Source: Acidimicrobiia bacterium (GTDB taxonomy: Bacteria; Actinomycetota; Acidimicrobiia; Acidimicrobiales; Aldehydirespiratoraceae). Taken from it: a stretch of DNA of 58,889 nucleotides. The notes under the pieces are model-generated. The model ran no database searches. It was not told where the DNA came from and worked only from the letters and a program-made list of their open reading frames with translations. Position numbers and translations under genes: made by a program. Position 1 is the first letter of the stretch, and every line of letters starts with the position of its first letter. Below are positions 16,716 through 47,946 of the stretch, in pieces. The DNA lies in contig JAUIML010000003.1 of assembly GCA_030432715.1 (NCBI GenBank), positions 1 to 58,889 of the forward strand, read 5' to 3'.

Positions 16716-16741
16716 CTCAAGGATCCCGGCGGTCGGCCGAA
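16716..16741 (+). promoter_or_regulatory. Putative sigma-28/WhiG-type promoter for the CAP gene
   Basis: CTCA-N16-GCCGAA, 11 bp before the ATG. Confidence 0.6.
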
Positions 16742-16752
16742 GGGAAGGTGTC

Positions 16753-17392
16753 ATGAACCGCGCCCCGGATACCCGACGTCTCCGCACCCGGAACCGGCTG
16801 GTGTTCGTGGTCGTCGCCACCCTGGCGGTGGTCGGTTCACTGCTCTGGCACGAGCCGGCGGCCGTCTCGGCCTCGGCGGACGACGAGGCCGCCTTCGTCG
16901 CTGCGCTCAACCAGGTGCGGGCGGAACACGGGCTGGCGCCCTTCGTCGTGAACCGGGAGCTCTCCGACCTGGCCCGCGCCCATGCGCAGGTGATGGCCGA
17001 CGCCGGCGAGATCTTCCATGCCAGCCCGATCAGCGCCGGGTTCACCGGATCGTGGAAGAAGCTCGGCGAGAACGTCGGTGTCGGCGCCAACGTTCAGGTG
17101 TTGGTCGATGCCTTCGTCGCCAGTTCGGGCCACTTCGCGAACATCATCGACCCGTCGTTCGTCGAGATCGGGGTGGGCGTCGTGTGGAAGGACTCCGCCC
17201 TCTACACCACCCACCGCTTCCTCCAACCCCAGGCTGCGGTCCACCACGACCGCACCCCCGACCACCACCACCCCGCCCACCACGACCGCACCGCCGGTCA
17301 CCACCACGACCGTTGCACCGCTCCCCGCTCCGGCGATCACTCCGGAACGGATGATCGCCCTGCTCGAGATGCTCGACCAGGTCGGAACCTGA
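16753..17392 (+). CDS. Secreted CAP/SCP-domain protein with Thr/Pro-rich tail; frameshift near 17240
   Basis: LNQVRAEHGL...GENVG...SSGHFANI...IGVGV. The Thr-rich tail (TTTAPPTTTT...) is in another frame and ends at 17392, 5 nt before the next ATG. Confidence 0.8.
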
Positions 17393-17397
17393 ACTCG

Positions 17398-18357
17398 ATG
17401 ACATCCACCGACGCCCCCTCGATCATCACCCGCGCCCTCTCCCGCTCGTTCGACGATCGCGTCGCGGTCGACGGCCTCGATCTGGAAGTCCGACGCGGCG
17501 AGGTCCTCGCCCTGCTGGGCCCGAACGGGGCGGGCAAGACCACGACCGTGAGAATGCTCAACGGTGTGCTCACCCCCGACCGCGGAGAGGTGCGGGTTCT
17601 CGGGCTCGACCCTACGGTCAACGGTGACGAGGTGCGCCGACGCACCGGCGTACTCACCGAGAACGCCGGGCTCGACGACCGGCTGACGGCACGCGAGAAC
17701 CTCGAATACACCGCTCGGATGCGCGGCTACTCGATCGCCGACGCCCACGCTCGCGTCGCCGACCAGCTCGATCGCTTCTCCATGCGCGACATGGCCGACC
17801 TCCGCACGGCGGGGTTCTCGACCGGCCAGCGCAAGCGCCTGGCGCTCGCCCGCGCCCTGCTCCACGACCCCGAGATCCTCTTCCTCGACGAACCCACGTC
17901 GGGTCTCGATCCGGCTGCGACCCGCGAGGTCACCGACCTGATCGGCACCCTCGCCCGCGAGCACGGCCGCACGGTGCTCCTCGCCACCCACTTCCTCGGT
18001 GAGGCCGGCCGGGTCGCCGACCGAATGGCGGTCCTCGACCGCGGACGACTCCGGGCCCTCGGGCGACCGGACGACCTCGCCGCCGAACTCTGGGACGGTG
18101 TGCCCGCCGACCTCGACTTCGGCGGCCCCGTGAGCCAGGCCGTGCTCGATCTCGTCGACAGTGTCGACGGCGTGTTGCGCACCGAGGCCCGGGCAACGGG
18201 AGCCACGATCGCCATCCGCGACCGGGCCACGATGGCCCGGGTCCTCGCCACCCTCGCCGGTCGCCGGATCGACGTCTTCGGGGCGACGATCCGTCAGGCC
18301 TCGATGGAGGACGTCTACTTCGCGCTGGAGTCGAGCTTCGCCACGGAGCCCCGATGA
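17398..18357 (+). CDS. ABC transporter ATP-binding protein
   Basis: GPNGAGKTT, FSTGQ, LFLDEPT, H-loop. Confidence 0.93.
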   Translation: MTSTDAPSIITRALSRSFDDRVAVDGLDLEVRRGEVLALLGPNGAGKTTTVRMLNGVLTPDRGEVRVLGLDPTVNGDEVRRRTGVLTENAGLDDRLTARENLEYTARMRGYSIADAHARVADQLDRFSMRDMADLRTAGFSTGQRKRLALARALLHDPEILFLDEPTSGLDPAATREVTDLIGTLAREHGRTVLLATHFLGEAGRVADRMAVLDRGRLRALGRPDDLAAELWDGVPADLDFGGPVSQAVLDLVDSVDGVLRTEARATGATIAIRDRATMARVLATLAGRRIDVFGATIRQASMEDVYFALESSFATEPR

Positions 18358-19232
18358 CCACGACCTCACCCGCCACCACCCCACCCGCCTCCACCCCACC
18401 CGCCTCGGCCACTCCCCGCCTCGGTCCCGACGTCCACGCGATCCGAGCCATCGTCGCCCGGGATCTCCGCGCCGTACGCCGCAGCAAGGCGGTCGTGATC
18501 CCGATGCTCACCGTGCCGGTGATCCTGATGGTCGTGCTGCCGCTGGTGGTCGGCTACGCGGCGCGGCGAGCGAGCCGAACCGGTGCCCGCATCGAGTTCC
18601 TCGACTCCCTGCCCTCGCAGTTGGCCGATCCCATCTCGAGCCTCCCTCCCGAGGAGCAGCTGCTGACCCTCGTGCTCGGCTTTCTCCTTGCCCCCCTCTT
18701 CCTCATCGTCCCGCTCATGGTGTCGGCGGTGTTGGCCGCCGACGCGTTCGCCGGGGAGAAGGAGCGTCGAACGATGGAGACGCTCCTGCATCTCCCGATC
18801 GCCGACCGCGACCTGTTCATCGCCAAGTTCCTGACCGGCTTCCTGCCTGCGGTGGCCGTCTCCTGGATCGGCTTCGCCTGCTTCACCGTGGTCGCCAACG
18901 CCGTGTCCTACGGCATCGTCGACGGGCTCGTGGTGCCCAACGCGCTCTGGTTGATCGTCATCTTCTGGGTGGCCCCGGCCATCGCCACGCTCGGTCTCGG
19001 GATCATGGTGCGGGTCTCGGCCCGGTGCAGCACCACCCAGGAAGCGAACCAGCTCGGCGGTGCGGTGATCCTTCCGCTGGTCTTCCTCGCGGTCGGCCAG
19101 TCGACGGGCCTCCTGCTCGTCGATGCCCCGCTGGCCCTCGCCATCGGCGGCGTCATCTGGTTGGTCGCCCTCACGCTCGTGGTGCGCGGCGCGGCACGGT
19201 TCACCCGGGACCGGGTGGCCGGAACCGGCTGA
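18354..19232 (+). CDS. ABC-2 type permease
   Basis: FAGEKERRTMETLL, multiple TM helices; ATGA overlap with the ATPase. Confidence 0.92.
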   Translation: MTTTSPATTPPASTPPASATPRLGPDVHAIRAIVARDLRAVRRSKAVVIPMLTVPVILMVVLPLVVGYAARRASRTGARIEFLDSLPSQLADPISSLPPEEQLLTLVLGFLLAPLFLIVPLMVSAVLAADAFAGEKERRTMETLLHLPIADRDLFIAKFLTGFLPAVAVSWIGFACFTVVANAVSYGIVDGLVVPNALWLIVIFWVAPAIATLGLGIMVRVSARCSTTQEANQLGGAVILPLVFLAVGQSTGLLLVDAPLALAIGGVIWLVALTLVVRGAARFTRDRVAGTG

Positions 19233-19244
19233 GGACTCCCGCGC

Positions 19245-19334
19245 TCAGCGGGCGAGCAGGAAGAACTGCAACGCGCCCGCCGCCAGGATGGCCATCAACA
19301 GGAGGGCGATCACGAGCGTGGTGCCCGACCGCAT
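19245..19334 (-). CDS. 29-aa single-TM small protein
   Basis: MRSGTTLVIALLLMAILAAGALQFFLLAR*. ATG overlaps the DUF62 stop (TGATG); GC-rich third positions. Confidence 0.7.
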   Translation of the reverse strand: MRSGTTLVIALLLMAILAAGALQFFLLAR

Positions 19335-20197
19335 CAGGGTCGCCGCCCCAGCTCGACCGGGGTGACGACCCCCTGATTGGTGCCCTCGGCGAGGGTCGAG
19401 ATCCGCACCTCGTCACCCTCGCCCAAGCCGAACTCGGCGGCGGCCGAGGTGCGAGCGGCGGCCACCGAGAGCAACCCACTCGAGTCGACGACGAGGCCGA
19501 CCCGCCCGGTCGGGATGTCGTCGTAGGCATCGGCACGAACGCCGACCCGGTCGTCGCCCCCGATCGTGACGCCGAGCAGCTCGCCGAAGGCGGCGAGTTC
19601 GAGCGGATCGACGTTGAGCTGGCAGTTGCCGAACCGGTCGACCCAGAGCACTTCACACACGAGGGTCTCGCCCTCGACCTGACTGACCGGGAGGATGCCG
19701 GGCATGAGTCCGGCCGGGTCGATCTCGGGGCCGAGGTCGGTCAGGGGCACGCCGTTGCAGAGATGGGCGGCCGCCGGGGCGAACACGTCACGGCCGTCGA
19801 ACGTCGACCCGCCGGCTGCATCGAGGCGATGGTCGGCTGAGGTGAGCTCGACCGCCCGGGTCGCTCCACCGACCAACCCGACGGCCGGGGCGAGCAGCCC
19901 GTTGTCGGGACCGACCAGGTACGAGGCGCCGTCGCCGACCTCGATCGCGATCGGACGACGCGCCGTGCCGACGCCGGGGTCGACCACCGCGACGACGACT
20001 CCCGGGCACAGATAGTTCGCGGCGCGGGCCAGCGCGAGACCACCGGCCCGCGTGTCGTGGGGGGCGATGCCGTGGGTGACGTCGATGACGGCGGCATGGG
20101 GGGCGATCGAACGGATCACCGAGTGCACGACCCCCACGAATTCGTCGCCGTGTCCGAAGTCGGACAGGAACGAGACGGTGTCGAAACGCGGGTTCAC
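19334..20197 (-). CDS. SAM hydroxide adenosyltransferase / chlorinase-fluorinase family (DUF62)
   Basis: FLSDFG, VVDPGVGTARR, GPDNG, STFDGRDVFAP, VDRFGN. Confidence 0.93.
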   Translation of the reverse strand: MNPRFDTVSFLSDFGHGDEFVGVVHSVIRSIAPHAAVIDVTHGIAPHDTRAGGLALARAANYLCPGVVVAVVDPGVGTARRPIAIEVGDGASYLVGPDNGLLAPAVGLVGGATRAVELTSADHRLDAAGGSTFDGRDVFAPAAAHLCNGVPLTDLGPEIDPAGLMPGILPVSQVEGETLVCEVLWVDRFGNCQLNVDPLELAAFGELLGVTIGGDDRVGVRADAYDDIPTGRVGLVVDSSGLLSVAAARTSAAAEFGLGEGDEVRISTLAEGTNQGVVTPVELGRRP

Positions 20198-20231
20198 GCT
20201 CGCGACGCTACCGGTGCGGTCGGGCCGGTGG

Positions 20232-21023
20232 TCACTCGGCGCCCAGCTCGCGGGAGCGCTCGGCGGCGGCATGGACGACGTCGGCCACCAGACCGAGGAA
20301 GTCGGCATCGTCGAACACGGCGAGACCGGCGGCGGTGGTGCCACCCTTCGAGGTCACGTTGGTGCGCAGCACCGCCGGGTCCTCGCCCGACGTCGACAGC
20401 AGCGTGGCCGCGCCGAGCAGGGTCTGGCGGGCGAGTGCATCGGCCGTCGCCGGGTCGAGGCCTTCGGCGACGCCGGCCGCTATGAGACCCTCGGCCATCC
20501 GGAAGAGATACGCGGGGCCCGACCCGGAGAGTCCGGTGACGGCGTCGAGGTCGGCCTCGTCGACCGTGACCACGAGCCCGACGGCCGACAGGATCCCGGC
20601 CGCCCACTCGAGATCATCGGCGTCGGCGTGGGCGCCGGCCGCGATGCCGGCGGCGCCCTGACCGACCAGAGCCGGGGTGTTCGGCATGCACCGCACCACG
20701 GCGGTGCCCTCACCCATCGCCGCTTCGATGGCGGCGGTGCGGACGCCGGCCGCGATCGACAGCACCCGGCGCACACCGGCGGTCGTGAGGCCCGTGAGGA
20801 CCAGGGGCACCACGTCGGGTTTGACGGCCACGAGGGCATCGGTGCCGGGGACGGGTTCGGTGCCGGCGGAGAGCCCCGGGTACCGCTCGGTCAACTCCTG
20901 CCGGCGAGCGGCGACCGGTTCGACGACGTGCAGGTCATCGGGCTGCGCCCAACCCTGCTCGATCATTCCGCCGAGGAGCGCCTCGGCCATCTTGCCGCCG
21001 CCGATCATCTGGAGCTTGGTCAC
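20232..21023 (-). CDS. proC: Pyrroline-5-carboxylate reductase
   Basis: GGGKMA, AVKP, SIAAG, RCMPNTP, GLSGSGPAY, VTSKGGTT. Confidence 0.96.
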   Translation of the reverse strand: MTKLQMIGGGKMAEALLGGMIEQGWAQPDDLHVVEPVAARRQELTERYPGLSAGTEPVPGTDALVAVKPDVVPLVLTGLTTAGVRRVLSIAAGVRTAAIEAAMGEGTAVVRCMPNTPALVGQGAAGIAAGAHADADDLEWAAGILSAVGLVVTVDEADLDAVTGLSGSGPAYLFRMAEGLIAAGVAEGLDPATADALARQTLLGAATLLSTSGEDPAVLRTNVTSKGGTTAAGLAVFDDADFLGLVADVVHAAAERSRELGAE

Positions 21024-21131
21024 GGCCGGACACCGTATGCGAAACCCGGTGGAGGCAGGACCCGCGCACTTCCCCGAGCGCTTCGCACCTCCACCGGGTC
21101 AAGGACGAATATACATGGGATGATATGAAAG

Positions 21132-21596
21132 TCAATCCTTGAAGCGGGAGGCGAAGCCGAGGCGCATCGCCGGCCGGAAGACCAGTTCGACGGCCGCCCA
21201 CATCGACCCGAGGATGCGGTCGAGCTCGGCATCGGTGACGGCCGCCACCGGCAGCGATCCCCGCAGGAAGACCGCGTCCTCGTCGCCCAGCTCGAGGTGG
21301 AGCCCCGTCAGCTTGTGGTTGCGGCGCAGGAGATGCTCGAACAACTCGGCCCGGTTCTCCTCCGGCGCCGGCATCAGGAAGGTCTCGAAGCCGAGAGTGC
21401 GTTGACCCAGCGTCCACCAGGCGGTCCACACGTCCTTCTCCTCGCCGAGGAATCGGATGTACCAGCGGATCACGTCGCCTTCGGCCCGCTCGACGGCATC
21501 GATGGCGGGATTGTCGGCCATCTCGGCCGCGAGCCATTCGTCGATCCGCCGCTCCAGGGCGGCGAGTTCGGCGGGCGTGGCCGGCGGTGACTGCAC
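21132..21596 (-). CDS. YbjN-domain (CesT-like chaperone fold) protein
   Basis: RFLGEEK...PAPEENRAELFEHLLRRN...LDRILG...LGFASRF. Follows mshA, as is common in actinobacteria. Confidence 0.8.
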   Translation of the reverse strand: MQSPPATPAELAALERRIDEWLAAEMADNPAIDAVERAEGDVIRWYIRFLGEEKDVWTAWWTLGQRTLGFETFLMPAPEENRAELFEHLLRRNHKLTGLHLELGDEDAVFLRGSLPVAAVTDAELDRILGSMWAAVELVFRPAMRLGFASRFKD

Positions 21597-21600
21597 GATG

Positions 21601-22812: not shown

Positions 22813-22894
22813 GACCTGTCCCAACGCACGGGGCCGACCAGACATTCCGTGACCCTGCGGGCGGGCGACCGGCCGGCGAGCGCAGGGTCGCCGA

Positions 22895-23422
22895 TCACGA
22901 GGGGGAGGTGGACGCTTCTCCGCCGGCGATCCGACGGGCGAGCTCGTCGTTGAGCGAGTCGATGGTGTCGTGGAGCGAGCGGCGACTCGTCGACAGTCGC
23001 TCCTCGAAATCGCGCAGGGCGATGACGGCCGCGGACAGCTCGTCGTCACCCAGATCGGCCACCTCGGTCATGATGGACGGCCCGACCACGTCGTCGAGCA
23101 CCGCGGTGAGCGGATCCACCACGGCTTCGGGCGGATCGAGCTCCTGGTCGACACGCCCCGATCCCGGCGCCCGGACCCCATCGCTCAACAGCTCGGGCAG
23201 GCGGGCCACCAGGTCGGCCAGGTCGCCGCCGCCGCCCTCGGTGCGGCGCTTGGTCTCGGCCACGATCACGTCGAGGCGTCCCTGCGCCAGCCGGCGCACA
23301 TAGGAGACCCCGTTCTCGAGGTCGGTGCACTCCGAACGCATCCTGCGGAGATCATCGGTTGCGGACTCGGCGAGCCCGGCCAGGTAGCCGGCCTCCAGCA
23401 CTCGTTGGAGATCTGGGATCAT
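22895..23422 (-). CDS. rsiG: RsiG (AmfC)-family c-di-GMP-binding anti-sigma factor
   Basis: ENGVSYVRRLAQGRLD matches E-x3-S-x2-R-x3-Q-x3-D. A second helix, EERLSTSRRSLHDTID, has H in place of Q. Confidence 0.8.
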   Translation of the reverse strand: MIPDLQRVLEAGYLAGLAESATDDLRRMRSECTDLENGVSYVRRLAQGRLDVIVAETKRRTEGGGGDLADLVARLPELLSDGVRAPGSGRVDQELDPPEAVVDPLTAVLDDVVGPSIMTEVADLGDDELSAAVIALRDFEERLSTSRRSLHDTIDSLNDELARRIAGGEASTSPS

Positions 23423-23496
23423 CGGGATGGGTCGACCTTGCTTCTCGTCGCGCGTCTCGTCGCGGCTTCTCGGTGGTGTCCGGCGGACGCGGCAGC

Positions 23497-33405: not shown

Positions 33406-34896
33406 ATGGGAACCCAACCCAACATCCTCATGATCGTGTCGGACGAGGAACGCCGCAACGGCTGGCTCGCGGGCAAGGCCGACATGCCGGCCCATGACCG
33501 ACTCGCGGCCGACGGCCTCACGTTCAACCGCTACTACACCCACTCGTCGCCGTGCTCGCCCTCGCGGGCCAGCCTCTACACGGGCAGCTATCTCGCCCAG
33601 CACGGGGTGTCGGACAATGTGTCGTTCCCCGCCCACACGGCCCTCGATCCAGCCATCCCGACCATCGGCAGCCTGCTGGTGGACCAGGGGTACTACTCCG
33701 CCTATCTCGGGAAGTGGCACCTCTCCCACGAACACATACCCGAGATGACGCGCCACGGCTACCAGGACTTCCGCGGCAACGACATGCACTACACCGGGGC
33801 CGCGTGGAGCGGAAGGTTCTTCGACCCGATCATCACCGCCGACGCGATCAACTGGCTACGCGACCACGCCCACGACGACCGGCCGTGGCACCTCACCGTC
33901 GCCCTGGTGAACCCCCACGACATCATGTGGTACCCGATCGACCATCCCAGCTATCAGAAGACCAACCCGGAGGACGCCAAGGTCTTCGAGTTCATGCGCA
34001 ACCTCCGGATGGAGGGCGTCCCGGTCGAACCCATGTCGGAGGATTACGCCGAGCGCTTCGACACCCTGCCCGAGAACTTCCACGACGACCTCCACACGAA
34101 GCCCGAGATCCAGCGGGCGTGGCGGCAGGTCCGCAACCACGAGCACTTCGTCGGCACGATGGATCTCGCCGACGAACGATCCTGGCTCCGCCAACTCGAC
34201 TACTACGCGTACCTCCACGAAGAGCTCGACAAGAACCTCGCCGAGCTGCTCGGGACCCTCGACGAGCTCGGGATCTACGACGACACCGTCATCGCCTACA
34301 CGTCCGACCACGGCGATGCGTGCGGCTCCCACGGGCTGCGGGCCAAGTTGCCCTGCGTCTACGAAGAGGTGATGGGGGTGCCGCTGACGATCAAGGCACC
34401 GGGGATCACCCAGCCTGGCACCGAGACCGATGCCCTCGCGACCCATGTCGACCTCGCCGCGACCCTGTGTGCGCTCGGCGGGGTCGATGTCGACGACACG
34501 CCGTCGTTGTCCGGCGTCGACCTGCGGCCCGCGCTCGCCGACCCTGGCGCGTCACCCCGTGACCACGTCTTCTTCAGCCAGGACAGCGCCCAGTCACCAC
34601 TCATCCGCAGCGTCCGCTATGCCGTGCGCGGCTTCTTCGACGGCGCGACCAAGTACGCCCGCTACTACGGCATCGGCGGCGGCATCGAACGCGATGGCCG
34701 ACCGGCCGAGTCACCCAAACTCTTCGACGTCGATGCCGCGTTCGAGGATCACGATCACGAGTGGTACGACCTCGACGAGGACCCCCACGAGCTCGTCAAC
34801 CTGGCCAACGACCCGAGTCGCCGCGACGAACTCCGGGCCAACTTCGCCCGCCTGCTCGACATCGAGGCGGCCGAACTCGGCGCCCCGCAGACCTAG
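33406..34896 (+). CDS. Formylglycine-dependent sulfatase (no signal peptide)
   Basis: PNILMIVSDE, CSPSR, GKWHL, TSDHG, YDLDEDPHELVNLA. Confidence 0.93.
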   Translation: MGTQPNILMIVSDEERRNGWLAGKADMPAHDRLAADGLTFNRYYTHSSPCSPSRASLYTGSYLAQHGVSDNVSFPAHTALDPAIPTIGSLLVDQGYYSAYLGKWHLSHEHIPEMTRHGYQDFRGNDMHYTGAAWSGRFFDPIITADAINWLRDHAHDDRPWHLTVALVNPHDIMWYPIDHPSYQKTNPEDAKVFEFMRNLRMEGVPVEPMSEDYAERFDTLPENFHDDLHTKPEIQRAWRQVRNHEHFVGTMDLADERSWLRQLDYYAYLHEELDKNLAELLGTLDELGIYDDTVIAYTSDHGDACGSHGLRAKLPCVYEEVMGVPLTIKAPGITQPGTETDALATHVDLAATLCALGGVDVDDTPSLSGVDLRPALADPGASPRDHVFFSQDSAQSPLIRSVRYAVRGFFDGATKYARYYGIGGGIERDGRPAESPKLFDVDAAFEDHDHEWYDLDEDPHELVNLANDPSRRDELRANFARLLDIEAAELGAPQT

Positions 34897-40529: not shown

Positions 40530-41470
40530 GCGACTCACCCATGAGCGACGAGTCCCCCGATCCGAGTGCGGTGATCTTCGTCGGCGGCTGCGACCGAAGC
40601 GGCACGACGATCGTCAGTCGGCTGATCGCAGAACAGCTGGGGCTGATCATGCTTCCCGAGGCGTACTTCCACGCCGTGGCGTTCCGCCGGTTCGGGGCCG
40701 ATGTTTCCGCCCTGGTCGCGCTGCGCCACTGGCGACGCCGCAGCTGGGGGCTCTCGGTCGACGACGACCGCCGCGACATGCGACTGGCCCCGTACCTGCG
40801 CGAGTGCATGTCCGACATCCAGGAGTCACGCCGCGGGCGGCGCACGCCCCTGCGCACCGTCGAGAGCACTCCGGAGAACATCGAGATCGGATCGACGCTC
40901 CTCTCCGAGTTCGCCGACGCGACCCTGGTCCACGTCGTGCGCGACCCACGGGCCGTCGCCGCGTCGCTGCGGGCCGCCGACTTCGGGCCCACGACCGTGC
41001 AGGAGTGCGCCCGCTTCTGGAAACAACGGGTGGCCAGCGGACTCGCCCTCGAGACCTCCCAGCCCGATCGGGTCGCTCGGGTGCGCTACGAGAGCTTCCT
41101 CGCCGATCCGACCGACCTGCCCGGACCCTTGGCCGGCGTGGCCCCGAGCCGCGACTTCACGTTCGAACCCGAGCGCGACGCGATTCTCGACCCGACCAGT
41201 CGGCAGCTGCAGACCCAGGCGCTCGCCGCGGTCGACACGAGCCGTATCGACGGTTGGCGGTCCATCCTCACGCCCGAGGAGGTCGGCATGATCGAATACG
41301 AGTGCCGCGAGCTGATGGTCGCGTTCGGCTACGAACTCGAGGGTTCGCCAGACGCCAGGACGTCGACGCAACGGCTCCTGACGTCGACCCGGTCCGCGCT
41401 CGGCGAACTCACGACCGGATCGTTCCGCCGACTAGTGCGGGTGGCGCGAGCTCGGGTCCGGCACCGCTGA
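40526..41470 (+). CDS. PAPS-dependent sulfotransferase
   Basis: GGCDRSGTT, ESTPEN, HVVRDPRAVAAS, VRYE. Confidence 0.9.
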   Translation: MSDSPMSDESPDPSAVIFVGGCDRSGTTIVSRLIAEQLGLIMLPEAYFHAVAFRRFGADVSALVALRHWRRRSWGLSVDDDRRDMRLAPYLRECMSDIQESRRGRRTPLRTVESTPENIEIGSTLLSEFADATLVHVVRDPRAVAASLRAADFGPTTVQECARFWKQRVASGLALETSQPDRVARVRYESFLADPTDLPGPLAGVAPSRDFTFEPERDAILDPTSRQLQTQALAAVDTSRIDGWRSILTPEEVGMIEYECRELMVAFGYELEGSPDARTSTQRLLTSTRSALGELTTGSFRRLVRVARARVRHR

Positions 41471-42295
41471 CCGGGGGGCGTCTCGGAAGAAGACGAAGTC
41501 CGACACATAGGTCGCCGGAAGGACACCCGACTCGAACCCCTCGCCGCTGTAGTTCGATGCAGAGAGTTGGTCGACCTGGTCGCGGGTGACATCGAAGTCG
41601 TCGATGGGCACGAGCCCGCCGTCGCGGATGAAGAAGCCATGGGGAAACTCGGTGGCGAGGTCGTCGATCGTGGCCGCGAGCGCATCGACACCACAGTGCC
41701 GGGCTTCGATCTCGATGATGAGCGTCGGCACGTCGCCCAGGCAGCCGCGCATGCCCTTCAGCACGTTCCCCTCGAGACCCTCGACATCGATCTTCACGAC
41801 GTCGAAGGGCCCCGACGCCTGCCAGATGTCGTCGACCGTCGCAACCGGCGTGATCTCGACCATGGCATTGGCGAGGCGCTCGCGCCCGGTCGCCAGCCAG
41901 TGCATGGGATTGCCGTCGCGATCGAGTGGAACCGAGAGGTGCATGACGCCCGCGACGGCGTCCACCGCGGCGGGGAGGAAGACCCGGCCGGGGGCGGACG
42001 TCGCCCACTTGGAGAGGCGCACGCGGTGGGTCGCGCCGGGTTCGACCGCGACGACCATCCCGTCTCGACCGACCCGGCCGGCCGCGACGGCGGCGTAGTC
42101 GCCACGATTCGCGCCGATGTCGAGATACCGCCCGCCGGGTTCGAGGTGCGTCTCCAGCAGGTCGACGATGACGTCGCCTGCCCGCCGGCGCCGAAGGATG
42201 GCCAAACGAGACGGCAACCTGACGAGGACCCGGTGGATCAGCCGGCTGACGGGCCCAAGTGACCGAAGTTTCTGAAGCATCCGCCGCTCGTTCAT
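41432..42295 (-). CDS. FkbM-family methyltransferase
   Basis: LDIGANRG, VAVEP, VKIDVEGLE. Confidence 0.9.
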   Translation of the reverse strand: MNERRMLQKLRSLGPVSRLIHRVLVRLPSRLAILRRRRAGDVIVDLLETHLEPGGRYLDIGANRGDYAAVAAGRVGRDGMVVAVEPGATHRVRLSKWATSAPGRVFLPAAVDAVAGVMHLSVPLDRDGNPMHWLATGRERLANAMVEITPVATVDDIWQASGPFDVVKIDVEGLEGNVLKGMRGCLGDVPTLIIEIEARHCGVDALAATIDDLATEFPHGFFIRDGGLVPIDDFDVTRDQVDQLSASNYSGEGFESGVLPATYVSDFVFFRDAPRSAVPDPSSRHPH

Positions 42296-43275
42296 CGGGA
42301 GAGTGAATGGCCCACGCGGGATACCACCTCGTCCCAGTTGTATACCCGTCGGTAGACCTGCGCGGCAATGTCGCGATCGGCGACGTCGAGCGGTGCCCGG
42401 GCCAGGCCCTCACGGAGGAGACCGACGAGCTCATCGTGGCTCGCGAAGAACCGCACCCCACCGAGGTCGACTTCGCGGAAGATCGGGGTGTCGCGACAGA
42501 TCACCGGGGAACCACAGGCGCGAGCCTCCGCCACCGGGAGTCCGAATCCTTCGCTGTGCGACGGCACGACCGTGACCGTGGCCTCGTTGTAGAGCGCGAC
42601 CAGCGCTTCGTCGGAGACATCGGAGACCAGGTGCACCCGTTGGGGCGGGATCCCCTCCGAGGTGAGCACCTCGAGGGCGCGGTCCCGCCCCCGGGTCACG
42701 ACGGTGAGTCGGGCATCGGGTTCGTCGAGCGCGGCGAACGCCGCCGCGAGGTCTTCGAACCCCTTGTTCGCGTTCATCGAGCCGACATACAGGATCGAGG
42801 GACGGTCGGGGGTCGACGCACCCGGCTGCACCGAGAAATGCGGCTCGACGCCGGCTCCCACGTTGACGATGGTCGGTCCCTCGTCGGCGAGCCATTCGCG
42901 GATCGCATCGGCGCTCTGCTCGCTGATCGTGAAGATGAACTCCGCGCGCCGCGCGCCACGGCGAACGACGGTGTCGTAGTACGCGCGGTAGTAGCGGGGA
43001 AAGCCGAGCGACGGGTCGCGCTGCATCAACCCGTAGATGAAGATCGAATACGGGACCGAACGCAGAAGCGGGCTGCTGAACCCCATGCTGAGGAAGTAGT
43101 CGGCGTCACCCGTTCGCCGAAGGGCGCCGGAGATCTGCACCGGAGCGAGCGGCGTGCCGGCGCGCCCCTCGAGCGGGAGACGGCGGAGGCCCAGACCCTC
43201 GGTCACGTGATGGGCGTACCGGCCGATGCCGGACATGCCCTCCCAACGAGGGTCGGTGTAGACGGAACGGTTCAG
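42292..43275 (-). CDS. GT4 glycosyltransferase (start uncertain: CTG 43275 or ATG 43236)
   Basis: DPRWEGMSGIGRY, YVGS...KG, SEGFGLPVAEA. Confidence 0.88.
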   Translation of the reverse strand: MNRSVYTDPRWEGMSGIGRYAHHVTEGLGLRRLPLEGRAGTPLAPVQISGALRRTGDADYFLSMGFSSPLLRSVPYSIFIYGLMQRDPSLGFPRYYRAYYDTVVRRGARRAEFIFTISEQSADAIREWLADEGPTIVNVGAGVEPHFSVQPGASTPDRPSILYVGSMNANKGFEDLAAAFAALDEPDARLTVVTRGRDRALEVLTSEGIPPQRVHLVSDVSDEALVALYNEATVTVVPSHSEGFGLPVAEARACGSPVICRDTPIFREVDLGGVRFFASHDELVGLLREGLARAPLDVADRDIAAQVYRRVYNWDEVVSRVGHSLSR

Positions 43276-45053
43276 ACGGATCTCAGGATCATGCCCTCTT
43301 GGGCGTCGAGTGTCACCGAGGTGACCAGATTGCCCGCAGGGTCGCGCATGGGTTCGTCCGGTGTGTAGGTCACCGGCCCGTTGCCGGGCTCGTTGAGGAG
43401 TACGACACCCTCGGTGAACTCGCGGACGAAGAGTCCGTCGTGGTAGGTCCGATCGGCGATCGCGTGCCCGAGATCGACATCGAACTCGCTCCACCAACCG
43501 TCGGGCGAACCCATCGACTTGCTGTCGGTGCTCACGAGATCGTTGCCGTTGTTCACGAGCAGCAGGGCGGCGAAGTTGTAGCGCTGCTCGGCTTCGTTCG
43601 TCGCCGACCGATCGACGAAGATCACGTTCGTACCGAGGGCATGGATTCGGTCGATGTTGTCGAAGAAGGCGAGGAGCGAGAACTTGCCCGCACCGCCTTT
43701 GAGGCCGCCATCGTTGACCCCCCGCTCGAGCGAGATGTAGTCGGCTGCCCGGATCGCCCGGTTGACGTACTGGTTCGAGAACGTCGGCGCATCGGCATAC
43801 CAGATCGTGTTGTGGACGATCTCGAGTTGGGGGAACTCGGCCCGCAACTGCTCCAGGAACTCCGCGAGGTATCGCTGCCAATCGGCCAGCGTCAGGGCGA
43901 CCCCGGTGCGCGGATCGATCGGGGTCGCCTCGTTGCCGTTCTGGTCGCCGAAGCGCCACATGAAGTTGACGTCGTCGAGCTTCAGTCCGGTGTAGCCGCG
44001 CTCGACCAGGTCTCTCACCTGCTCGACGAAGTCGGCACGGTACGCGGGGTTCCCGACATCCCCGGCGAAGTGGGCGCATCCGCCGCCGCACCCGAACGGG
44101 ATGTAGACCGGGTCGCCGTCCGCATCGCGCAGGACCCATTCGGGGTGATCGACCGATCGAGCATCGGATGCCGTGTCGGTGCTGATGCCGTAGGAGTTGC
44201 GGTAGGCCCAGACGTCGGAGAACGACTCGAGACGCGAGTCCCAGTAGGGGACGAACACGATGGCTCGGTCGACGTGCTCCTCGAACCAGGACCAGTGACC
44301 CCCCGAGGTCCACTGGTTCCACGACGAGTTCGCGGTCACCACGAACCCGGCGGAGCCCTCCGAGCAGCACACGGCCCCGGTCGAGTCGTCGGAGCCGGCG
44401 CCTTCGGACCGGAGCTGGTTGTAGAGGCGGATCAGGAACGCAGCCATCTGCTCACGCGTGACCACCGCCGCGGGCGAGTACTGCGTCGGCGAGGTGCCGG
44501 TGGTGATGCCGAGTCCGTAGATGCAGCCGACGGCCTCGACCGCGAACGAGGAATCGGGGACGTCGGTGAACGGCGTGGCGCCCGGCGTGCAGCTGTTGTC
44601 GCTGACCTCGTCGTAGAAGCGGGCCAGAAACGCAGCCATCTGTTCTCGGCTCACCGGTGCCCGTGGGGAGTACCGGGTCGGACTCGTCCCCGCGGTGATC
44701 CCGAGTCGATACATGCATCCGATCGGTCCGGCCGCGTACGAGGCGGCGTCGACGTCGACGAACGGTGTGGCGGCCGGGCTGCACGGCTGTGGGACCAGGA
44801 CCTCGTAGAGCCGCCCGAGGAAGGTCGCCATCTGCTCGCGGGTGACCGTCGCCCGAGGGCTGAACGTGGTCGGCGAGGTGCCGGCGGTGACGCCGAGGGA
44901 ATAGAGCGCCTCGATCGAGGGCTCGGCGAACGAATTGCCGATGTCGTCGAAGGGTGTCGGGCCGGTGGCCGCCGCCGTCTCCGCGGGGAGCAGGAGCGCC
45001 GCGATCAGCGCACACGTCATCATCGTGTGGCTGAGTCTGCTCAGTCGCTTCAT
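43272..45053 (-). CDS. Secreted S-layer-homology (SLH) protein with putative glycoside hydrolase domain
   Basis: Signal peptide; three GITxGTSPTxYSP...VTREQMAAFL repeats; C-terminal HPEWVLRD, DVGNP, GYTGLKLDDVN, RxF..G.V. Confidence 0.82.
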   Translation of the reverse strand: MKRLSRLSHTMMTCALIAALLLPAETAAATGPTPFDDIGNSFAEPSIEALYSLGVTAGTSPTTFSPRATVTREQMATFLGRLYEVLVPQPCSPAATPFVDVDAASYAAGPIGCMYRLGITAGTSPTRYSPRAPVSREQMAAFLARFYDEVSDNSCTPGATPFTDVPDSSFAVEAVGCIYGLGITTGTSPTQYSPAAVVTREQMAAFLIRLYNQLRSEGAGSDDSTGAVCCSEGSAGFVVTANSSWNQWTSGGHWSWFEEHVDRAIVFVPYWDSRLESFSDVWAYRNSYGISTDTASDARSVDHPEWVLRDADGDPVYIPFGCGGGCAHFAGDVGNPAYRADFVEQVRDLVERGYTGLKLDDVNFMWRFGDQNGNEATPIDPRTGVALTLADWQRYLAEFLEQLRAEFPQLEIVHNTIWYADAPTFSNQYVNRAIRAADYISLERGVNDGGLKGGAGKFSLLAFFDNIDRIHALGTNVIFVDRSATNEAEQRYNFAALLLVNNGNDLVSTDSKSMGSPDGWWSEFDVDLGHAIADRTYHDGLFVREFTEGVVLLNEPGNGPVTYTPDEPMRDPAGNLVTSVTLDAQEGMILRSV

Positions 45054-45116
45054 GCGGACCCCTGGACGAACTCGGCACAAACCCGAGAAGGCACAGGGCC
45101 ATCCCGTCTCAGCTTG

Positions 45117-45143
45117 TATCGGCACCGCCCGTGCCCACTTGAG
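45117..45143 (-). promoter_or_regulatory. Putative sigma-28/WhiG-type promoter for the SLH-hydrolase
   Basis: Minus strand CTCA-N16-GCCGATA. Confidence 0.6.
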
Positions 45144-45226
45144 CGTGCAACCTAGCGGACGCGGATCCCGTCGTGGCGGCGGCCACCGGCGCCGACCCTC
45201 ACCGGGCACCGGCCTAAACTCCGCCG

Positions 45227-46438
45227 GTGCAACTGAGGAAGTCCTTGCTGAGCCGCGGGTCGACGCTGGCGTTCGACCAGATGCTCAGCAGCATGTCGAA
45301 CCTGCTGATGGGCCTCCTCGCGATCCGCTCTCTCGGGCTCGACGACTTCGGCGCGTTCTCGACCGTCTACGTCGCCTACATCCTCGTTCTCGGACTGATC
45401 CGCGCCGCCGTCGTCGATCCGTACATGGCGGGGATCTACGCGCATGACGAGCCGCACGACCGTCTGCAGCTCGTCCTCATCTTCGGTCTGGGCGGCTTCG
45501 TCTTCGGGCTCGTCGCGGCCGGGTCGATCCTTGCCCTCGACATGTCGAGCGTGACCGTCGCCCTGCTGCTGGTTCCGACGATCACCGGCGTCTTCGTGCT
45601 CGATGCCGTGCGCTACATCGGCTTCAAGGTGCCGGCGATGGCGGGTCCGTGCGTCGCCGATGGGATATGGGTGGCCATCGCACTGGTGGCGCTGCTGACC
45701 GTGGGCGACGAGCTCACCGTCGGCGAGGTGCTCCTGCTCTGGGCCGGAGCCGGCACGGTGGGACTCCTCGTCGCGATTCCCTTCGTGCCGCGCATCGAGT
45801 TCGGTCACGTTCGCTTCGATGCGCTCACCACGCACCGAAAGCTGCGGACCGCATACGCCCTCGACTATTCGCTCTCGAGCGGCGTCGGCCAGCTCGGCGC
45901 CCTGCTGCTCGGGGTGTTGTTCGGGTTCGCGGCGCTCGGATCGTTTCGCGCCGTCAGCCTCGTGATGCGACCGGCGACGACCGTCGTCACGGCGGTCCAG
46001 TCCGTTCTCCTGAACGAGTTCGACATGCGAACGCAGCGCCCCGGCGCGAACGTGCTCCGCTTCGCCCAACTGGTCGCGCTCGCCCTGTTGGCCATCTCCG
46101 TCCTCTGGTCGGCGTTCATCCTGCTCCTCCCGGAGAGTTGGTTGGTCGACCTGATGGGTCCTGACTGGCTGCGGGCGAAGAACCTCGTCCTGCCGGTGGC
46201 GGTCCTCAACTTCGGTCTCGTCGCGATCGTCCCGGCCCAGCTTCTGCTGCGCTTCCGACGGGCGTCCCGCTCGTTGTTGCAGGCGCGGGTGTTCGGCTCG
46301 ATCGCGCTGATCGGGGGGTTGCTCGTGGGTGACTACATCGCCGCGGTTCGCGCCGCGGTCTGGGGGATGGCCCTGGGCGCGCTGTTGGGCGCCGCGGTGT
46401 TCTGGATCGCCGTGTATCGCACCCCGAGCGAGCGCTGA
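45227..46438 (+). CDS. Wzx-like flippase / polysaccharide biosynthesis membrane protein
   Basis: DQMLSSMSN...RSLGLDDFGAF; about 12 TM; in the EPS locus. Confidence 0.8.
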   Translation: MQLRKSLLSRGSTLAFDQMLSSMSNLLMGLLAIRSLGLDDFGAFSTVYVAYILVLGLIRAAVVDPYMAGIYAHDEPHDRLQLVLIFGLGGFVFGLVAAGSILALDMSSVTVALLLVPTITGVFVLDAVRYIGFKVPAMAGPCVADGIWVAIALVALLTVGDELTVGEVLLLWAGAGTVGLLVAIPFVPRIEFGHVRFDALTTHRKLRTAYALDYSLSSGVGQLGALLLGVLFGFAALGSFRAVSLVMRPATTVVTAVQSVLLNEFDMRTQRPGANVLRFAQLVALALLAISVLWSAFILLLPESWLVDLMGPDWLRAKNLVLPVAVLNFGLVAIVPAQLLLRFRRASRSLLQARVFGSIALIGGLLVGDYIAAVRAAVWGMALGALLGAAVFWIAVYRTPSER

Positions 46439-46445
46439 GGTCCGT

Positions 46446-47852
46446 TCACACGGAGAAGAGCACCGCGGCCTCACGCGGACCGAGCGTGATCGACTGGACG
46501 AGCCGGCCGTCGAGGGTGCGCATGATCTGTCCGAGCTCGATCGTCGTACGGGCGGCCCCCGGTTCGGTCAGGAAGACGGCGCCGCGGCTGAAGGCCCGTC
46601 GATGGACTCCGTCCTCGAATCGCCGTTCACCGACCGCCGCGCCCAGGTCCGTGTCGAACCCGCCCCACAGGGACGACGGCGAAACGTGGGAGACCACATC
46701 CGAGGTGATCGCGTCGTGGCCGTTGCTGGTGAGGAGGGCCCCGCCGAGGTTGTACTCCAGCACCGCTGCGGAGTCCGCCGCCTTGTCGACCAGGACCACG
46801 GCCGCACCGTTCTCGTGGATCCGGTCGATCATCGCCATGAACGACCGGATCCCCCACCGGCCTCCACCGCCCTCGAGGCCGCCATCGCCGTAGCCGCGCT
46901 CGAGGGCGATGACGTCGGCCGACCGGATCGCGCGGTCGATCAGGGGGTCGGCGAGTCCGGGCGAGTCGCTGAACCAGATGATGTTGTGCATGATCTCGAG
47001 GTCGGGGAACTCGGCCCGGATCAGTTCGAGGAACTCGGTGAAGTACCGACGCCAGTCCTCGAGTTCGAGCGGGGCGCCGGTACGCGGGTCGATCGGCGTC
47101 GACGGACCCCCGTCGACCGTGCCGAAACGCCACTCGAAGTTGACGTCGTCCAGCATCAGGCCGGGGTACCCGCGGTCCACGAGCCCCGCGACGTAATCGA
47201 GGAAATCGGCGCGGAAGCCTGGGTCGCCGATGTCGGCGGCGTAGCGCGGGCAGCCGCCACCGCAGGCGAAGGGGATGTACACGGCATCTCCGTTCGCATC
47301 GCGCAGGATCCACTCCGGATGCTCGATGGCGCGACGGTCCTTGGTCGTGTTGACCGAGATGCCGTATGCGTTCTGGTACACCAACACGTCGCGGTAGCTG
47401 TCGAGACGCGTGTCCCAGTACGGCTCGAACACCACCATCCGGTCGAAGGTGGCGCCGAGCCAGTCCCAGTGTCCACCGGAGGTGTAGCGGTCGTAGCTCG
47501 ATCGAGCGTTGACGGTCAGGCCGAGGGTCCCCTCTCCGTGGGACAGCCACCGATCGGGTTGAGCCGTGGCCTCGACCACTGGCTCGACGGCCTCGGCGAC
47601 CGGCACGACGACCTCGGCTTCCTCGACCGCCGGCCCTGCGACCGCGACCACTCGCTCGACGGCCTCAGAGGCCGGCACCACGACCTCGGGCTCCTGGACG
47701 ACCGGCGCCGGAAGCTCACGGACGGCTTCCGTCTCGACCGTCCCCCCACGGACGGCCGCCACCAGCCCACAGGCCACCGCGACCACGAGGACCGCGGTGG
47801 ACCGGGCGACACCCGATCGACGGGGCCTCGGGGCCTCGGGGTGCTCGACCAC
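46446..47852 (-). CDS. Membrane-anchored putative glycoside hydrolase, paralog of the C-terminal domain of 43272-45053
   Basis: Shares TSGGHW, PYWD.RL, HPEW.LRD, PF.CGGGC, LDDVNF, PIDPRTG, HN.IW, LERG. AGGAG RBS; EAVE/VVVP repeat stalk. Confidence 0.82.
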   Translation of the reverse strand: MVEHPEAPRPRRSGVARSTAVLVVAVACGLVAAVRGGTVETEAVRELPAPVVQEPEVVVPASEAVERVVAVAGPAVEEAEVVVPVAEAVEPVVEATAQPDRWLSHGEGTLGLTVNARSSYDRYTSGGHWDWLGATFDRMVVFEPYWDTRLDSYRDVLVYQNAYGISVNTTKDRRAIEHPEWILRDANGDAVYIPFACGGGCPRYAADIGDPGFRADFLDYVAGLVDRGYPGLMLDDVNFEWRFGTVDGGPSTPIDPRTGAPLELEDWRRYFTEFLELIRAEFPDLEIMHNIIWFSDSPGLADPLIDRAIRSADVIALERGYGDGGLEGGGGRWGIRSFMAMIDRIHENGAAVVLVDKAADSAAVLEYNLGGALLTSNGHDAITSDVVSHVSPSSLWGGFDTDLGAAVGERRFEDGVHRRAFSRGAVFLTEPGAARTTIELGQIMRTLDGRLVQSITLGPREAAVLFSV

Positions 47853-47919
47853 CGCTGATCTCCTGTTCGGGTTCCGCACCTGCAACCGGCAGGGCCACCG
47901 CGGCGCGGCAGGAGTACCC

Positions 47920-47946
47920 ATCGGCCCGGAGCACCGTTGAGTTGAC
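47920..47946 (-). promoter_or_regulatory. Putative sigma-28/WhiG-type promoter for the second hydrolase
   Basis: Minus strand GTCA-N17-GCCGAT. Confidence 0.45.

Follow-up and report, generated by a model that had tools for sequence, protein, structure and literature searches.

Candidate sigma-28-type promoters precede CAP and GHL15 hydrolase genes on an Acidimicrobiales contig that encodes an RsiG homologue

Introduction

The RsiG–WhiG switch controls sporulation in Streptomyces, and the targets of the RsiG-(c-di-GMP)2-WhiG system of Streptomyces venezuelae are reportedly the sporulation regulators whiH and whiI. In Bacillus subtilis, the SigD regulon includes the secreted, wall-anchored autolysins LytC, LytD and LytF and belongs to the switch by which cells become dispersed and motile. 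In Rubrobacter radiotolerans, where the complex is (RsiG)2-(c-di-GMP)2-WhiG, the available portions of the published account predict that the switch governs pili, naming type IV pilus and DGC/PDE genes; this regulon was inferred from an intergenic motif no more than 200 bp from start codons, with the −35 searched as TAAA, and comprises 12 sites supported by transcription start mapping (PMC8325347). A 2026 phylum-wide survey gives motility, chemotaxis, pili, sporulation, antibiotic synthesis and c-di-GMP turnover as outputs; polysaccharide is not mentioned in its main text, and its regulon table lists neither Acidimicrobiia nor the Thermoleophilia genera looked for (PMC13595943). In Actinoplanes missouriensis, the FliA-family sigma factors (WhiG1) use CTCA-N16-17-GCCGAACT promoters. 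The matrix-degrading hydrolases gimA and gimB of this species are, according to the excerpts at hand, activated by TcrA and not directly by FliA (PMC12691653).

Here we analyse contig JAUIML010000003.1, a fragment of an uncultured Acidimicrobiales metagenome-assembled genome; the entire contig (58,889 bp) is the window. The source organism is an uncultured actinobacterium of marine type. The window encodes an RsiG homologue and holds three promoter-like sites (S1, S2 and S3) upstream of genes for a CAP-domain protein and two GHL15 proteins. As in S. venezuelae, RsiG is of the twin-motif type, of similar length and alignable (6pfj) over residues 23–171, and the promoter type is GCCGA at −10 with T(A/C)AA at −35. 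Unlike that system, the genes proposed as targets encode secreted hydrolases, a CAP protein and an exporter, motif 2 of RsiG carries His for Gln, and the candidate switch is represented on the contig by RsiG. R. radiotolerans offers a parallel as a non-sporulating actinobacterium that has redeployed the switch to its cell surface, as we propose here; its RsiG is however a single-motif homodimer, its targets are other genes, and S1–S3 are known from sequence alone. The Actinoplanes promoters share their −35 core and spacing with S1 and S2, but WhiG1 is tied to flagellar clusters and is reportedly unbound by RsiG.

Results

A twin-motif RsiG homologue

22895..23422, minus strand: RsiG homologue, 175 aa, twin-motif (Pfam PF22802; PDB 6pfj_T)

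This protein matches PF22802 with E = 1.4e-24 (86 bits against a cut-off of 27) and PDB 6pfj_T with E = 1.5e-12 across residues 23–171. Motif 1 (E36-S40-R43-Q47-D51) fits E(X)3S(X)2R(X)3Q(X)3D exactly, while motif 2 (E140-S144-R147-H151-D155) has His in place of Gln; both are invariant in 20/20 aligned Acidimicrobiales homologues. [quoted passage not shown]

WhiG is reported wherever RsiG occurs, with r = 0.88 between the presence of WhiG2 and that of RsiG, in the available parts of the phylum-wide survey; among the rows found in its Table S1, three of three for Acidimicrobiia give WhiG1 = 0 and WhiG2 = 1, and Acidithrix and Ilumatobacter have one WhiG2 and one RsiG each (PMC13595943). The 58,889-bp contig itself contains no sigma-28-family gene, which counts against a WhiG reading, and the window holds no flagellar genes.

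Promoter-like sites before CAP and GHL15 genes

Genes were mapped by a home-made procedure based on codon bias, which yields 43 oriented upstream gaps totalling 4,884 nt. The classical sigma-28 −35 is CTAAAG, one base away from CTCAAG, and the published rule for sigma-28-type promoters is XT(C/A)AX at −35 with GCCGA, of which CGA is invariant, at −10. We used the published WhiG/FliA queries in their preprint form as a union (CTCA-N16-17-GCCGA and T[AC]AA-N16-GCCGA); the journal wording of the rule, a pentamer and a 16-nt spacer, is exact for S3 only, S1 and S2 being shorter by one base. Under the preprint queries S1 and S2 read CTCA-N16-GCCGA and S3 reads TCAA-N16-GCCGA. By direct reading against our gene map, S1–S3 exist and are, as the initial annotation described them, intergenic and correctly oriented; each lies no more than 200 bp before a start codon.

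16715..16743, plus strand: S1, promoter-like site gCTCAAg-N14-GCCGAAGG (direct reading; 13/13 to gCTCAAg/GCCGAW)
16753..19232, plus strand: likely three-gene operon of CAP, ABC ATPase and ABC-2 permease genes (Pfam, frame analysis)
16753 to about 17388, plus strand: gene for a secreted CAP-domain protein (Pfam CAP, 56.3 bits)
ATG 17398 to 18357, plus strand: ABC ATPase gene (Pfam ABC_tran, 111 bits)
18354–19232, plus strand: ABC-2 permease gene (Pfam ABC2_membrane_2)

S1 lies in a 79-nt divergent gap between an acyl-CoA synthetase gene (minus) and the CAP ORF (plus), with −35 CTCAA at 16716–16720, a 15-nt spacer and −10 GCCGAAGG at 16736–16743. The −10 octamer is 9 nt from ATG 16753, implying a leaderless or nearly leaderless mRNA. 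A Shine-Dalgarno-like GGAAGG between the −10 and the ATG counts against the promoter reading; it would not be part of the mRNA except in the leaderless case. Frame analysis indicates an apparent frameshift in the CAP ORF near 17240.

45116..45144, minus strand: S2, promoter-like site gCTCAAg-N14-GCCGATAC (direct reading; 13/13 to gCTCAAg/GCCGAW)
43272..45053, minus strand: predicted secreted hydrolase with signal peptide, three SLH repeats and GHL15 TIM barrel (Pfam)
42292–43236, minus strand: GT4 glycosyltransferase gene, after a 35-nt gap from the SLH-GHL15 gene (Pfam)
41432–42205, minus strand: FkbM-type methyltransferase gene, with an 86-nt gap upstream (Pfam)

S2 has its −35 CTCAA at 45143–45139, a 15-nt spacer and −10 GCCGATAC at 45123–45116, and does not differ from S1 in gCTCAAg or GCCGA. 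The −10 octamer is 62 nt from ATG 45053 of the SLH-GHL15 gene, whose product scores 99.4 bits for Pfam SLH and 43.0 bits for GHL15 (PF14885; cut-off 27). Its AlphaFold model has a pLDDT of 84.9 overall and above 90 across the GHL15 domain, and a Foldseek search with the GHL15 model returned GH168 endo-fucanases and the PelA hydrolase domain as best PDB matches. GHL15 shares a (beta/alpha)8 barrel with the PelA hydrolase domain (5tcb) and GH168 at a target-normalised TM-score of ~0.6, at a sequence identity of only 12–17%. By its score above the gathering cut-off and its modelled TIM-barrel hydrolase fold, the protein belongs to the glycoside-hydrolase-like GHL15 family. Because the GT4 and methyltransferase genes are co-directional and downstream, with gaps of 35 and 86 nt, they could be co-transcribed from S2, which probably also drives them as a putative operon.

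47918..47947, minus strand: S3, promoter-like site cGTCAAc, as TCAA-N16-GCCGATGG (direct reading)
46446..47852, minus strand: GHL15 paralogue with N-terminal signal/anchor, acidic linker and GHL15 domain (Pfam GHL15, 36.0 bits, cut-off 27)

S3 begins 18 nt past the TGA (47966–47964) of the preceding gene and comprises −35 GTCAA (47946–47942), a 16-nt spacer and −10 GCCGATGG (47925–47918); its extended −35 is weaker (10/13). The favoured, if uncertain, start codon, GTG 47852, comes with a Shine-Dalgarno sequence (AGGAG) and lies 65 nt from the −10 octamer; the alternative start, ATG 47921, overlaps the −10. On the GHL15 tree the paralogue is sister of the SLH-GHL15 gene (support 99*). Counterparts of S3 by position occur in two other loci, L001 (CTCAC-N16-GTCGATGG) and L005 (CTCAA-N16-GACGATGG), flanked as in the window by GHL15 and the corresponding membrane-protein gene.

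Both GHL15 genes sit within a Wzx/Wzy-type cluster with Wzz-kinase, Wzy, glycosyltransferases and a priming transferase (Pfam).

Site statistics within the window

In the 4,884 nt of oriented gaps, the published queries match exactly S1–S3: three matches against a shuffle mean of 0.09, with at least three in 0/2,000 shuffles and 0.37 expected from the whole-window motif density, in a window that the initial annotation had selected post hoc. In the 43 gaps only the CAP gene and the two GHL15 genes are preceded by the motif, which agrees with the absence before housekeeping genes noted in that annotation. The accompanying statement that housekeeping genes show TANNNT boxes instead is not diagnostic, any TANNNT being found in just 17/43 gaps. 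Sense-strand TANNNT is absent from the S1 and S3 gaps and occurs once in the S2 gap (TAGGTT, 45154–45149), and intergenic DNA of 43000–50400 has no sigma-70 consensus.

Across the whole window, GCCGAW is very common (201 copies), and the weak test of CTCA-N15-17-GCCGA gave 9 occurrences against 3.7 ± 2.2 in shuffled sequence, with at least 9 in 2/100 shuffles. The 43 gaps hold five GCCGAW and five TCAA, three of each kind being paired, and TCAA-N15-16-GCCGAW occurs three times in the window, at S1, S2 and S3. The counts in the oriented gaps support S1–S3 as non-random matches to the published WhiG/FliA promoter rules.

A fourth site, CTAC-N16-GCCGAT at 50166..50191 (minus), had been put forward as a weaker promoter. 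The sequence is there, but its −35 CTACT misfits T(C/A)A and no published-rule query returns it; we rejected it as sigma-28-type.

Recurrence upstream of GHL15 homologues

We compared 76 loci with a GHL15 alignment, 53 from Actinomycetota and 23 from other phyla. Upstream of GHL15 in sense orientation, CTCAA-N15-16-GCCGA, a pattern refined after the data had been seen, occurs at 6/53 Actinomycetota loci (L013, L017, L030, L042, L046 and L050) against 0.10 expected, with no antisense matches and none at the 23 loci of other phyla; eight loci match when one −10 mismatch is allowed. Poisson P values for such counts overstate independence because the loci are akin to one another. With the published strict pattern, the 576 oriented gaps of the 53 loci gave 17 matches against a shuffle mean of 4.8, with at least 17 in 0/500 shuffles.

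The composition of the sites agrees with a specific −10. For CTCAA-N15-16-NNCGA, NN is GC in 6/9 sites before GHL15 and in 6/79 elsewhere in the loci, which indicates that the −10 is GCCGA rather than just CGA. A flanking G, outside the search pattern, accompanies CTCAA at 12/16 sites on either side. On the GHL15 tree the matches fall into sister groups (L013+L017, L030+L046, L042+L076 and L001+L005+L007) within which boxes are conserved and spacers have diverged.

Three results count against the pattern. A strict match is absent from all of the 12 nearest GHL15 relatives (L001–L012, 45–54% identity), among which one-mismatch versions occur in L001, L005 and L007 only. Acidimicrobiia alone gave one strict match against 0.27 expected, an enrichment that is not significant. 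Finally, a convincing motif was not found at CAP genes adjoining GHL15 in Thermoleophilaceae.

In Thermoleophilia the motif also precedes genes for Bac_transf (L055), Wzz-kinase (L035), glycosyltransferases (L024 and L043), a methyltransferase (L041) and Wzy (L076). Some of these motif-bearing genes are polysaccharide synthesis genes (Wzz-kinase, priming transferase, GT2 and Wzy).

Discussion

The best explanation as a whole, to which we give an even chance, is that S1–S3 are sigma-28-type promoters read by a WhiG2 sigma under RsiG/c-di-GMP gating. They are most likely real promoters for a sigma-28-family sigma (FliA/SigD/WhiG type), with the local consensus gCTCAAg, a 14–15-nt spacer and GCCGA(A/T). 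S1 would drive the secreted CAP-domain protein and the ABC-2 exporter, S2 the SLH-anchored GHL15 polysaccharide hydrolase, probably with the GT4 and methyltransferase genes, and S3 the second GHL15 hydrolase. We infer that the host genome carries a WhiG gene; the sigma would most likely be the organism's WhiG2-clade factor, with the RsiG of 22895–23422 as its partner. On the model of Streptomyces and Rubrobacter, c-di-GMP-bound RsiG would sequester the sigma, and a fall in c-di-GMP would allow transcription of the envelope and exopolysaccharide genes. The position of S1–S3 before two hydrolase genes and a CAP gene suggests a c-di-GMP switch over the surface matrix, a plausible new output of the known RsiG–WhiG switch; the hydrolases may act on the matrix, and their role may be its dispersal.

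Beyond this contig, uncultured Acidimicrobiales, with Solirubrobacterales as a parallel case, may have rewired the RsiG–WhiG2 switch to an exopolysaccharide/envelope module. Such a module may consist of GHL15 endo-hydrolases and a CAP protein with an ABC-2 exporter, joined in Thermoleophilia by Wzz, Wzy and the priming transferase, and may form a sigma/anti-sigma route from c-di-GMP to matrix that is on at low c-di-GMP, which would be opposite in sign to the usual rule that high c-di-GMP makes matrix. We regard this combination, taken jointly, as doubtful. If S1–S3 are real, the uncharacterised GHL15 family gains a regulatory context: we found no characterised member, and regulation of the family is absent from the listed titles and abstract openings of the four papers that mention it. 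The sites would also connect c-di-GMP with the surface matrix in aquatic actinobacteria that are abundant and uncultured, and provide a short, testable promoter set for cultured relatives such as Ilumatobacter.

The same promoters and switch could serve the building or maturing of surface polysaccharide, not dispersal, with the GHL15 enzymes acting like the hydrolases encoded in Pel, Psl, cellulose and alginate clusters; we consider this quite possible, though we lean against it. PelA-type hydrolases are likewise encoded within a polysaccharide gene cluster, and the Wzx/Wzy-type setting of both GHL15 genes, the GT4 and methyltransferase genes after S2, the PelA-like fold and the motif before Thermoleophilia synthesis genes all point this way. 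In the window, however, the only synthesis genes with a site are those downstream of S2. The loci compared are all, by the way they were selected, polysaccharide neighbourhoods, which means that any intergenic match precedes such genes, and one-mismatch matches are noisy.

It seems improbable that the matches are coincidences of GC-rich DNA and that the genes use other promoters or read-through. The abundance of GCCGAW, the weak whole-window test, the post hoc choice of window and the lack of strict matches among the nearest relatives would fit coincidence, as would S3, whose extended motif scores no higher than another gap site (48832) and which lies inside a co-directional gene string. Chance accounts poorly, however, for the shuffling result in oriented upstream DNA, the recurrence before GHL15 homologues with its empty antisense and other-phyla controls, the GC bias of the bases preceding CGA, and the concordance of sister pairs.

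Another unlikely reading invokes a flagellar, FliA/WhiG1-like sigma independent of RsiG, which would place the hydrolases in a motility regulon with flagellar assembly, not c-di-GMP, as the gate. The consensus CTCA-N15-17-GCCGAA given in the initial annotation, with its CTCA −35, derives from Actinoplanes WhiG1-clade sigmas, which in the available text RsiG reportedly does not bind (PMC13595943), so that RsiG control does not follow automatically. In the accessible sections, flagellar clusters are reported in 41–91% of species of basal classes including Acidimicrobiia and Thermoleophilia (PMC10746217), and Conexibacter and Thermoleophilum appear with both WhiG1 and WhiG2 in the listed entries. 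Against WhiG1 stand the Acidimicrobiia rows found in Table S1, all with WhiG2 alone of the two (PMC13595943), and the invariance of the RsiG motifs, which implies that a partner sigma has been retained. The link to RsiG is restored because WhiG1 and WhiG2 clades reportedly both read similar promoters and TCAA in S1–S3 matches T(A/C)AA; the earlier interpretation as a whole is partly supported.

It is very improbable that the element is instead bound by a transcription factor or read by a different alternative sigma, such as an ECF type that recognises AAC at −35 and CGA/CGT at −10. In favour of this reading, S3 has AAC within its −35 (GTCAAC), CGAT-like −10 elements occur in some ECF promoters of mycobacteria, and no sigma was identified on the contig. 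Against it, the −10 is specifically GCCGA, the −35 CTCAAG fits the published XT(C/A)AX, and promoters recognised by a sigma typically combine fixed boxes with spacers that vary freely, here at 15–16 nt.

Under the WhiG2 and RsiG reading, the window would resemble B. subtilis SigD in that a sigma-28-family sigma co-expresses secreted, anchored hydrolases; SigD differs in that the substrate is peptidoglycan instead of a polysaccharide matrix and the anti-sigma is FlgM, not c-di-GMP-loaded RsiG.

Candidate sigma-28-type promoters lie upstream of a CAP gene and two hydrolase genes

Four candidate sigma-28-type (WhiG/FliA) promoter sites, S1 to S4, had been named in the initial annotation, and direct reading of the window sequence bore out their positions:

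16716-16743, + strand: S1, CTCAA (16716-16720), 15-nt spacer, GCCGAAGG (16736-16743); ATG of the CAP ORF 9 nt on
45143-45116, - strand: S2, CTCAA (45143-45139), 15-nt spacer, GCCGATAC (45123-45116); ATG of the SLH-GHL15 gene 62 nt on
47946-47918, - strand: S3, GTCAA (47946-47942), 16-nt spacer, GCCGATGG (47925-47918); GTG of the GHL15 paralog 65 nt on
50191-50166, - strand: S4, -35 of CTAC, before a kinase-like gene

S1 and S2 are identical in gCTCAAg and GCCGA, the extended -35 is poorer at S3 than at either, and TCAA is common to all three; these are also the only three copies of TCAA-N15-16-GCCGAW across the window. S4, offered as a weaker fourth site, satisfies no motif rule and was rejected because its -35 fails.

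S3 begins 18 nt past the stop of the preceding gene. An ATG at 47921, in frame with the GHL15 paralog, lies within its -10 box; translation of the paralog from this ATG would rule out S3 as the promoter of that gene. Codon bias and an AGGAG Shine-Dalgarno sequence favour GTG 47852 as the probable start.

The -10 alone is uninformative because GCCGAW has 201 copies in the window. Across the whole window the bipartite motif was weakly enriched (9 versus 3.7 in shuffles; 9 reached by 2 of 100 shuffles). On a gene map drawn by codon bias, the oriented upstream gaps numbered 43 and totalled 4,884 nt. There, the two queries of a 2026 preprint (CTCA-N16-17-GCCGA for WhiG1 and T(A/C)AA-N16-GCCGA for WhiG2) together matched exactly S1, S2 and S3, against a shuffle mean of 0.09 (3 reached by none of 2,000 shuffles) and 0.37 matches expected from the density across the window. 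The proposed excess over shuffled sequence thus held in the oriented gaps and was weak window-wide: position, not whole-window count, carries the signal. The remark that housekeeping genes show TANNNT boxes instead proved uninformative, since that box is present in just 17 of the 43 gaps; we consider its absence from the S1 and S3 gaps notable. A sigma-70 consensus scan of 43000-50400 returned a single match, within coding DNA, and an Rfam search of the window found no riboswitch and one tRNA only.

The gene downstream of S1 does encode a CAP domain, as annotated, but its ORF is not straightforward: the domain occupies one frame, and a Thr/Pro-rich tail that ends in TGA at about 17386-17388 occupies the +1 frame. 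In the assembled sequence, the CAP frame continues into an ABC ATPase as a single 534-aa ORF (16753-18357), and the ATPase has its own ATG at 17398. Codon bias and the Thr/Pro-rich +1 tail point to a frameshift, or an indel in the assembly, close to 17240, and to CAP and the ATPase being separate genes. S1 would serve as promoter for CAP together with the ABC ATPase and an ABC-2 permease, and its geometry implies a leaderless mRNA.

The GHL15 genes lie in a polysaccharide cluster

The model of the GHL15 domain (PF14885, a glycoside-hydrolase-like family) is confident (pLDDT 84.9), and its fold is nearest to GH168 endo-1,3-fucanases and the PelA hydrolase domain (TM-score normalised to target about 0.6, identity 12-17%); as modelled, the domain has the (beta/alpha)8 fold of a polysaccharide endo-hydrolase. 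A signal peptide and three SLH repeats accompany the domain in SLH-GHL15, and an N-terminal anchor in its paralog. Both genes lie within a Wzx/Wzy-type cluster (about 35-55 kb of the window) containing a Wzz-kinase, Wzy, glycosyltransferases and a priming transferase; downstream of S2, GT4 and FkbM methyltransferase genes follow SLH-GHL15 co-directionally.

A sulfatase gene (33406-34896) sits at the cluster edge and, as the GHL15 fold is closest to sulfated-fucan-cutting enzymes, the cluster's polymer could be sulfated. Directly after the last cluster gene is a tRNA-Lys(TTT) (55468-55544), followed by about 1 kb (55545-56607) without a convincing gene; together these could form an island boundary.

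The motif recurs upstream of GHL15 genes in other Actinomycetota

The hydrolase is at most 56% identical to its closest relatives, which are proteins of Acidimicrobiales MAGs. A profile search of genome contigs, with an alignment of 44 GHL15 proteins as query, gave 76 loci, labelled L001-L076, of which 53 are actinobacterial (15 Acidimicrobiia-like, 36 from Thermoleophilia and 2 from elsewhere in Actinomycetota) and 23 belong to other phyla. CTCAA-N15-16-GCCGA, its CTCAA picked once the window had been seen, lay in sense orientation upstream of GHL15 in 6 of the 53 actinobacterial loci, against 0.10 expected from the remainder of the same loci; the antisense count was 0, as was that in other phyla (0/23 loci). 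Permitting a single mismatch at either of the first two -10 positions raised the number to 8 loci. The published pattern, fixed a priori, gave 9 matches upstream of GHL15 versus 3.4 expected, and in 576 oriented gaps 17 versus a shuffle mean of 4.8, with 17 reached by none of 500 shuffles; P values here are generous because the loci are related to one another and three of them (L003, L004 and L009) are nearly identical.

The two bases preceding CGA were GC in 6 of 9 sites upstream of GHL15 versus 6 of 79 elsewhere, and the -10 is therefore GCCGA. A G, which was not part of the search pattern, stood on each flank of CTCAA in 12 of 16 sites per side. On a quick maximum-likelihood tree (IQ-TREE), the window's GHL15 paralogs are sisters (99*). 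The motif is found in the sister pairs L013 and L017, L030 and L046, and L042 and L076, also in L001 and L005, and in L050; L007, which has it too, belongs to a four-row clade shared with L001 and L005. Across sister pairs the boxes are constant and the spacers divergent.

Two results count against the promoter reading: among Acidimicrobiia alone there was 1 strict match versus 0.27 expected, and the 12 nearest GHL15 relatives had no strict motif upstream (0/12). In the 5 kb upstream at the 15 Acidimicrobiia-like loci, L050 alone carried a perfect site, CTCAA-N15-GCCGATAA, and L001, L005 and L007 had one-mismatch sites. Those of L001 and L005 are counterparts of S3: they share its CGATGG and occupy the same gap, from a homologous membrane-protein gene to GHL15. 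In two Solirubrobacteraceae loci, a near-identical TCACTGATACGAAC...GCCGATTC element (gaps L013 15717-16496 and L055 17512-17551) lies 13-15 nt ahead of the gene start; it could represent a further conserved site of the sigma-28 type, or an element of another kind.

CTCAA-N15-16-GCCGA also precedes synthesis genes in Thermoleophilia loci, which are polysaccharide neighbourhoods by construction:

L055 14979-15006, - strand: before a priming transferase; strict
L035 5066-5094, - strand: before a Wzz-kinase; strict
L024 335-363, + strand: before a GT2 gene; strict
L043 8218-8245, - strand: before a GT2 gene; one mismatch
L041 828-856, + strand: before a methyltransferase; one mismatch
L076 19190-19218, - strand: before Wzy; one mismatch

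CAP-domain genes lie near GHL15 in 4 of the 36 Thermoleophilia loci, three of them close relatives:

L051, L054 and L066, about 7230-7790 in each: CAP-domain genes about 2.3 kb from GHL15
L072 14117-14509: CAP-domain gene about 4 kb from GHL15

This proximity hints at a shared system for GHL15 and the CAP protein. No convincing motif was found upstream of these four Thermoleophilaceae CAP genes, and comparative support for S1 is thus lacking; the evidence for it comes from the window.

An RsiG homolog is encoded in the window

Pfam (57 ORFs) and NCBIfam (23 ORFs) searches of the window, which is an entire contig of 58,889 bp, found no gene for a sigma factor, DGC or PDE. A six-frame motif scan found the signature of RsiG, the c-di-GMP-loaded anti-sigma of WhiG:

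22895-23422, - strand: RsiG homolog, 175 aa (Pfam RsiG, E=1.4e-24)

It aligns over its full length with the solved S. venezuelae RsiG (E=1.5e-12) and has at least 208 homologs, mostly of 175 aa, the named ones being from Acidimicrobiales MAGs. Both c-di-GMP motifs are invariant in 20 aligned Acidimicrobiales homologs, the second having His (H151) for Gln in 20/20. In published RsiG logos, the frequent Gln-to-His change falls in the first motif. According to PMC8325347, an RsiG carrying His binds c-di-GMP, 3 of 4 Acidimicrobiales have the twin-motif form, and Rubrobacter regulons were predicted via the same type of motif search.

A phylum survey (PMC13595943) reports that WhiG is always present where RsiG occurs, that the partner of RsiG is the WhiG2 clade and not WhiG1, and that promoters of both clades are alike (-35 XT(C/A)AX, -10 GCCGA); it counts one WhiG2 and no WhiG1 in each of Acidimicrobium, Acidithrix and Ilumatobacter. 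Neither Acidimicrobiia nor the Thermoleophilia genera searched for are named in any row of its regulon table. The cultured relative Ilumatobacter coccineus is listed as having WhiG2 and RsiG and as lacking flagella. Flagellar clusters are described as common in these classes (PMC10746217, from the Acidimicrobiia/c-di-GMP literature). With the RsiG and kinase-like proteins as queries, tblastn returned no match in the 76 GHL15 loci.

Candidate output of the RsiG-WhiG switch

We propose that a WhiG2-clade sigma would read gCTCAAg-N14-15-GCCGA(A/T) and would be sequestered by c-di-GMP-loaded RsiG. A drop in c-di-GMP would free the sigma, leading to expression of the hydrolases and the CAP/exporter unit, with matrix dispersal, or else matrix synthesis and maturation, as the outcome. 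Published work already describes the switch, the motif and this way of searching, and RsiG and WhiG2 are known from the lineage; the new part, as read from the sequence, would be the candidate output (secreted hydrolases and CAP/exporter). Titles and abstract openings of GHL15-naming papers contained no report of GHL15 regulation, and those among the matches listed proposed no link between WhiG and exopolysaccharide.

Other features of the window

Cytochrome b is encoded as two ORFs, with N-terminal and C-terminal domains separate, like b6/subunit IV-type complexes:

3-743 and 771-1568, - strand: split cytochrome b

Within a hem gene cluster, uroporphyrinogen-III synthase and an acetyltransferase domain share a single ORF:

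11006-12148, - strand: HEM4 and GNAT domains
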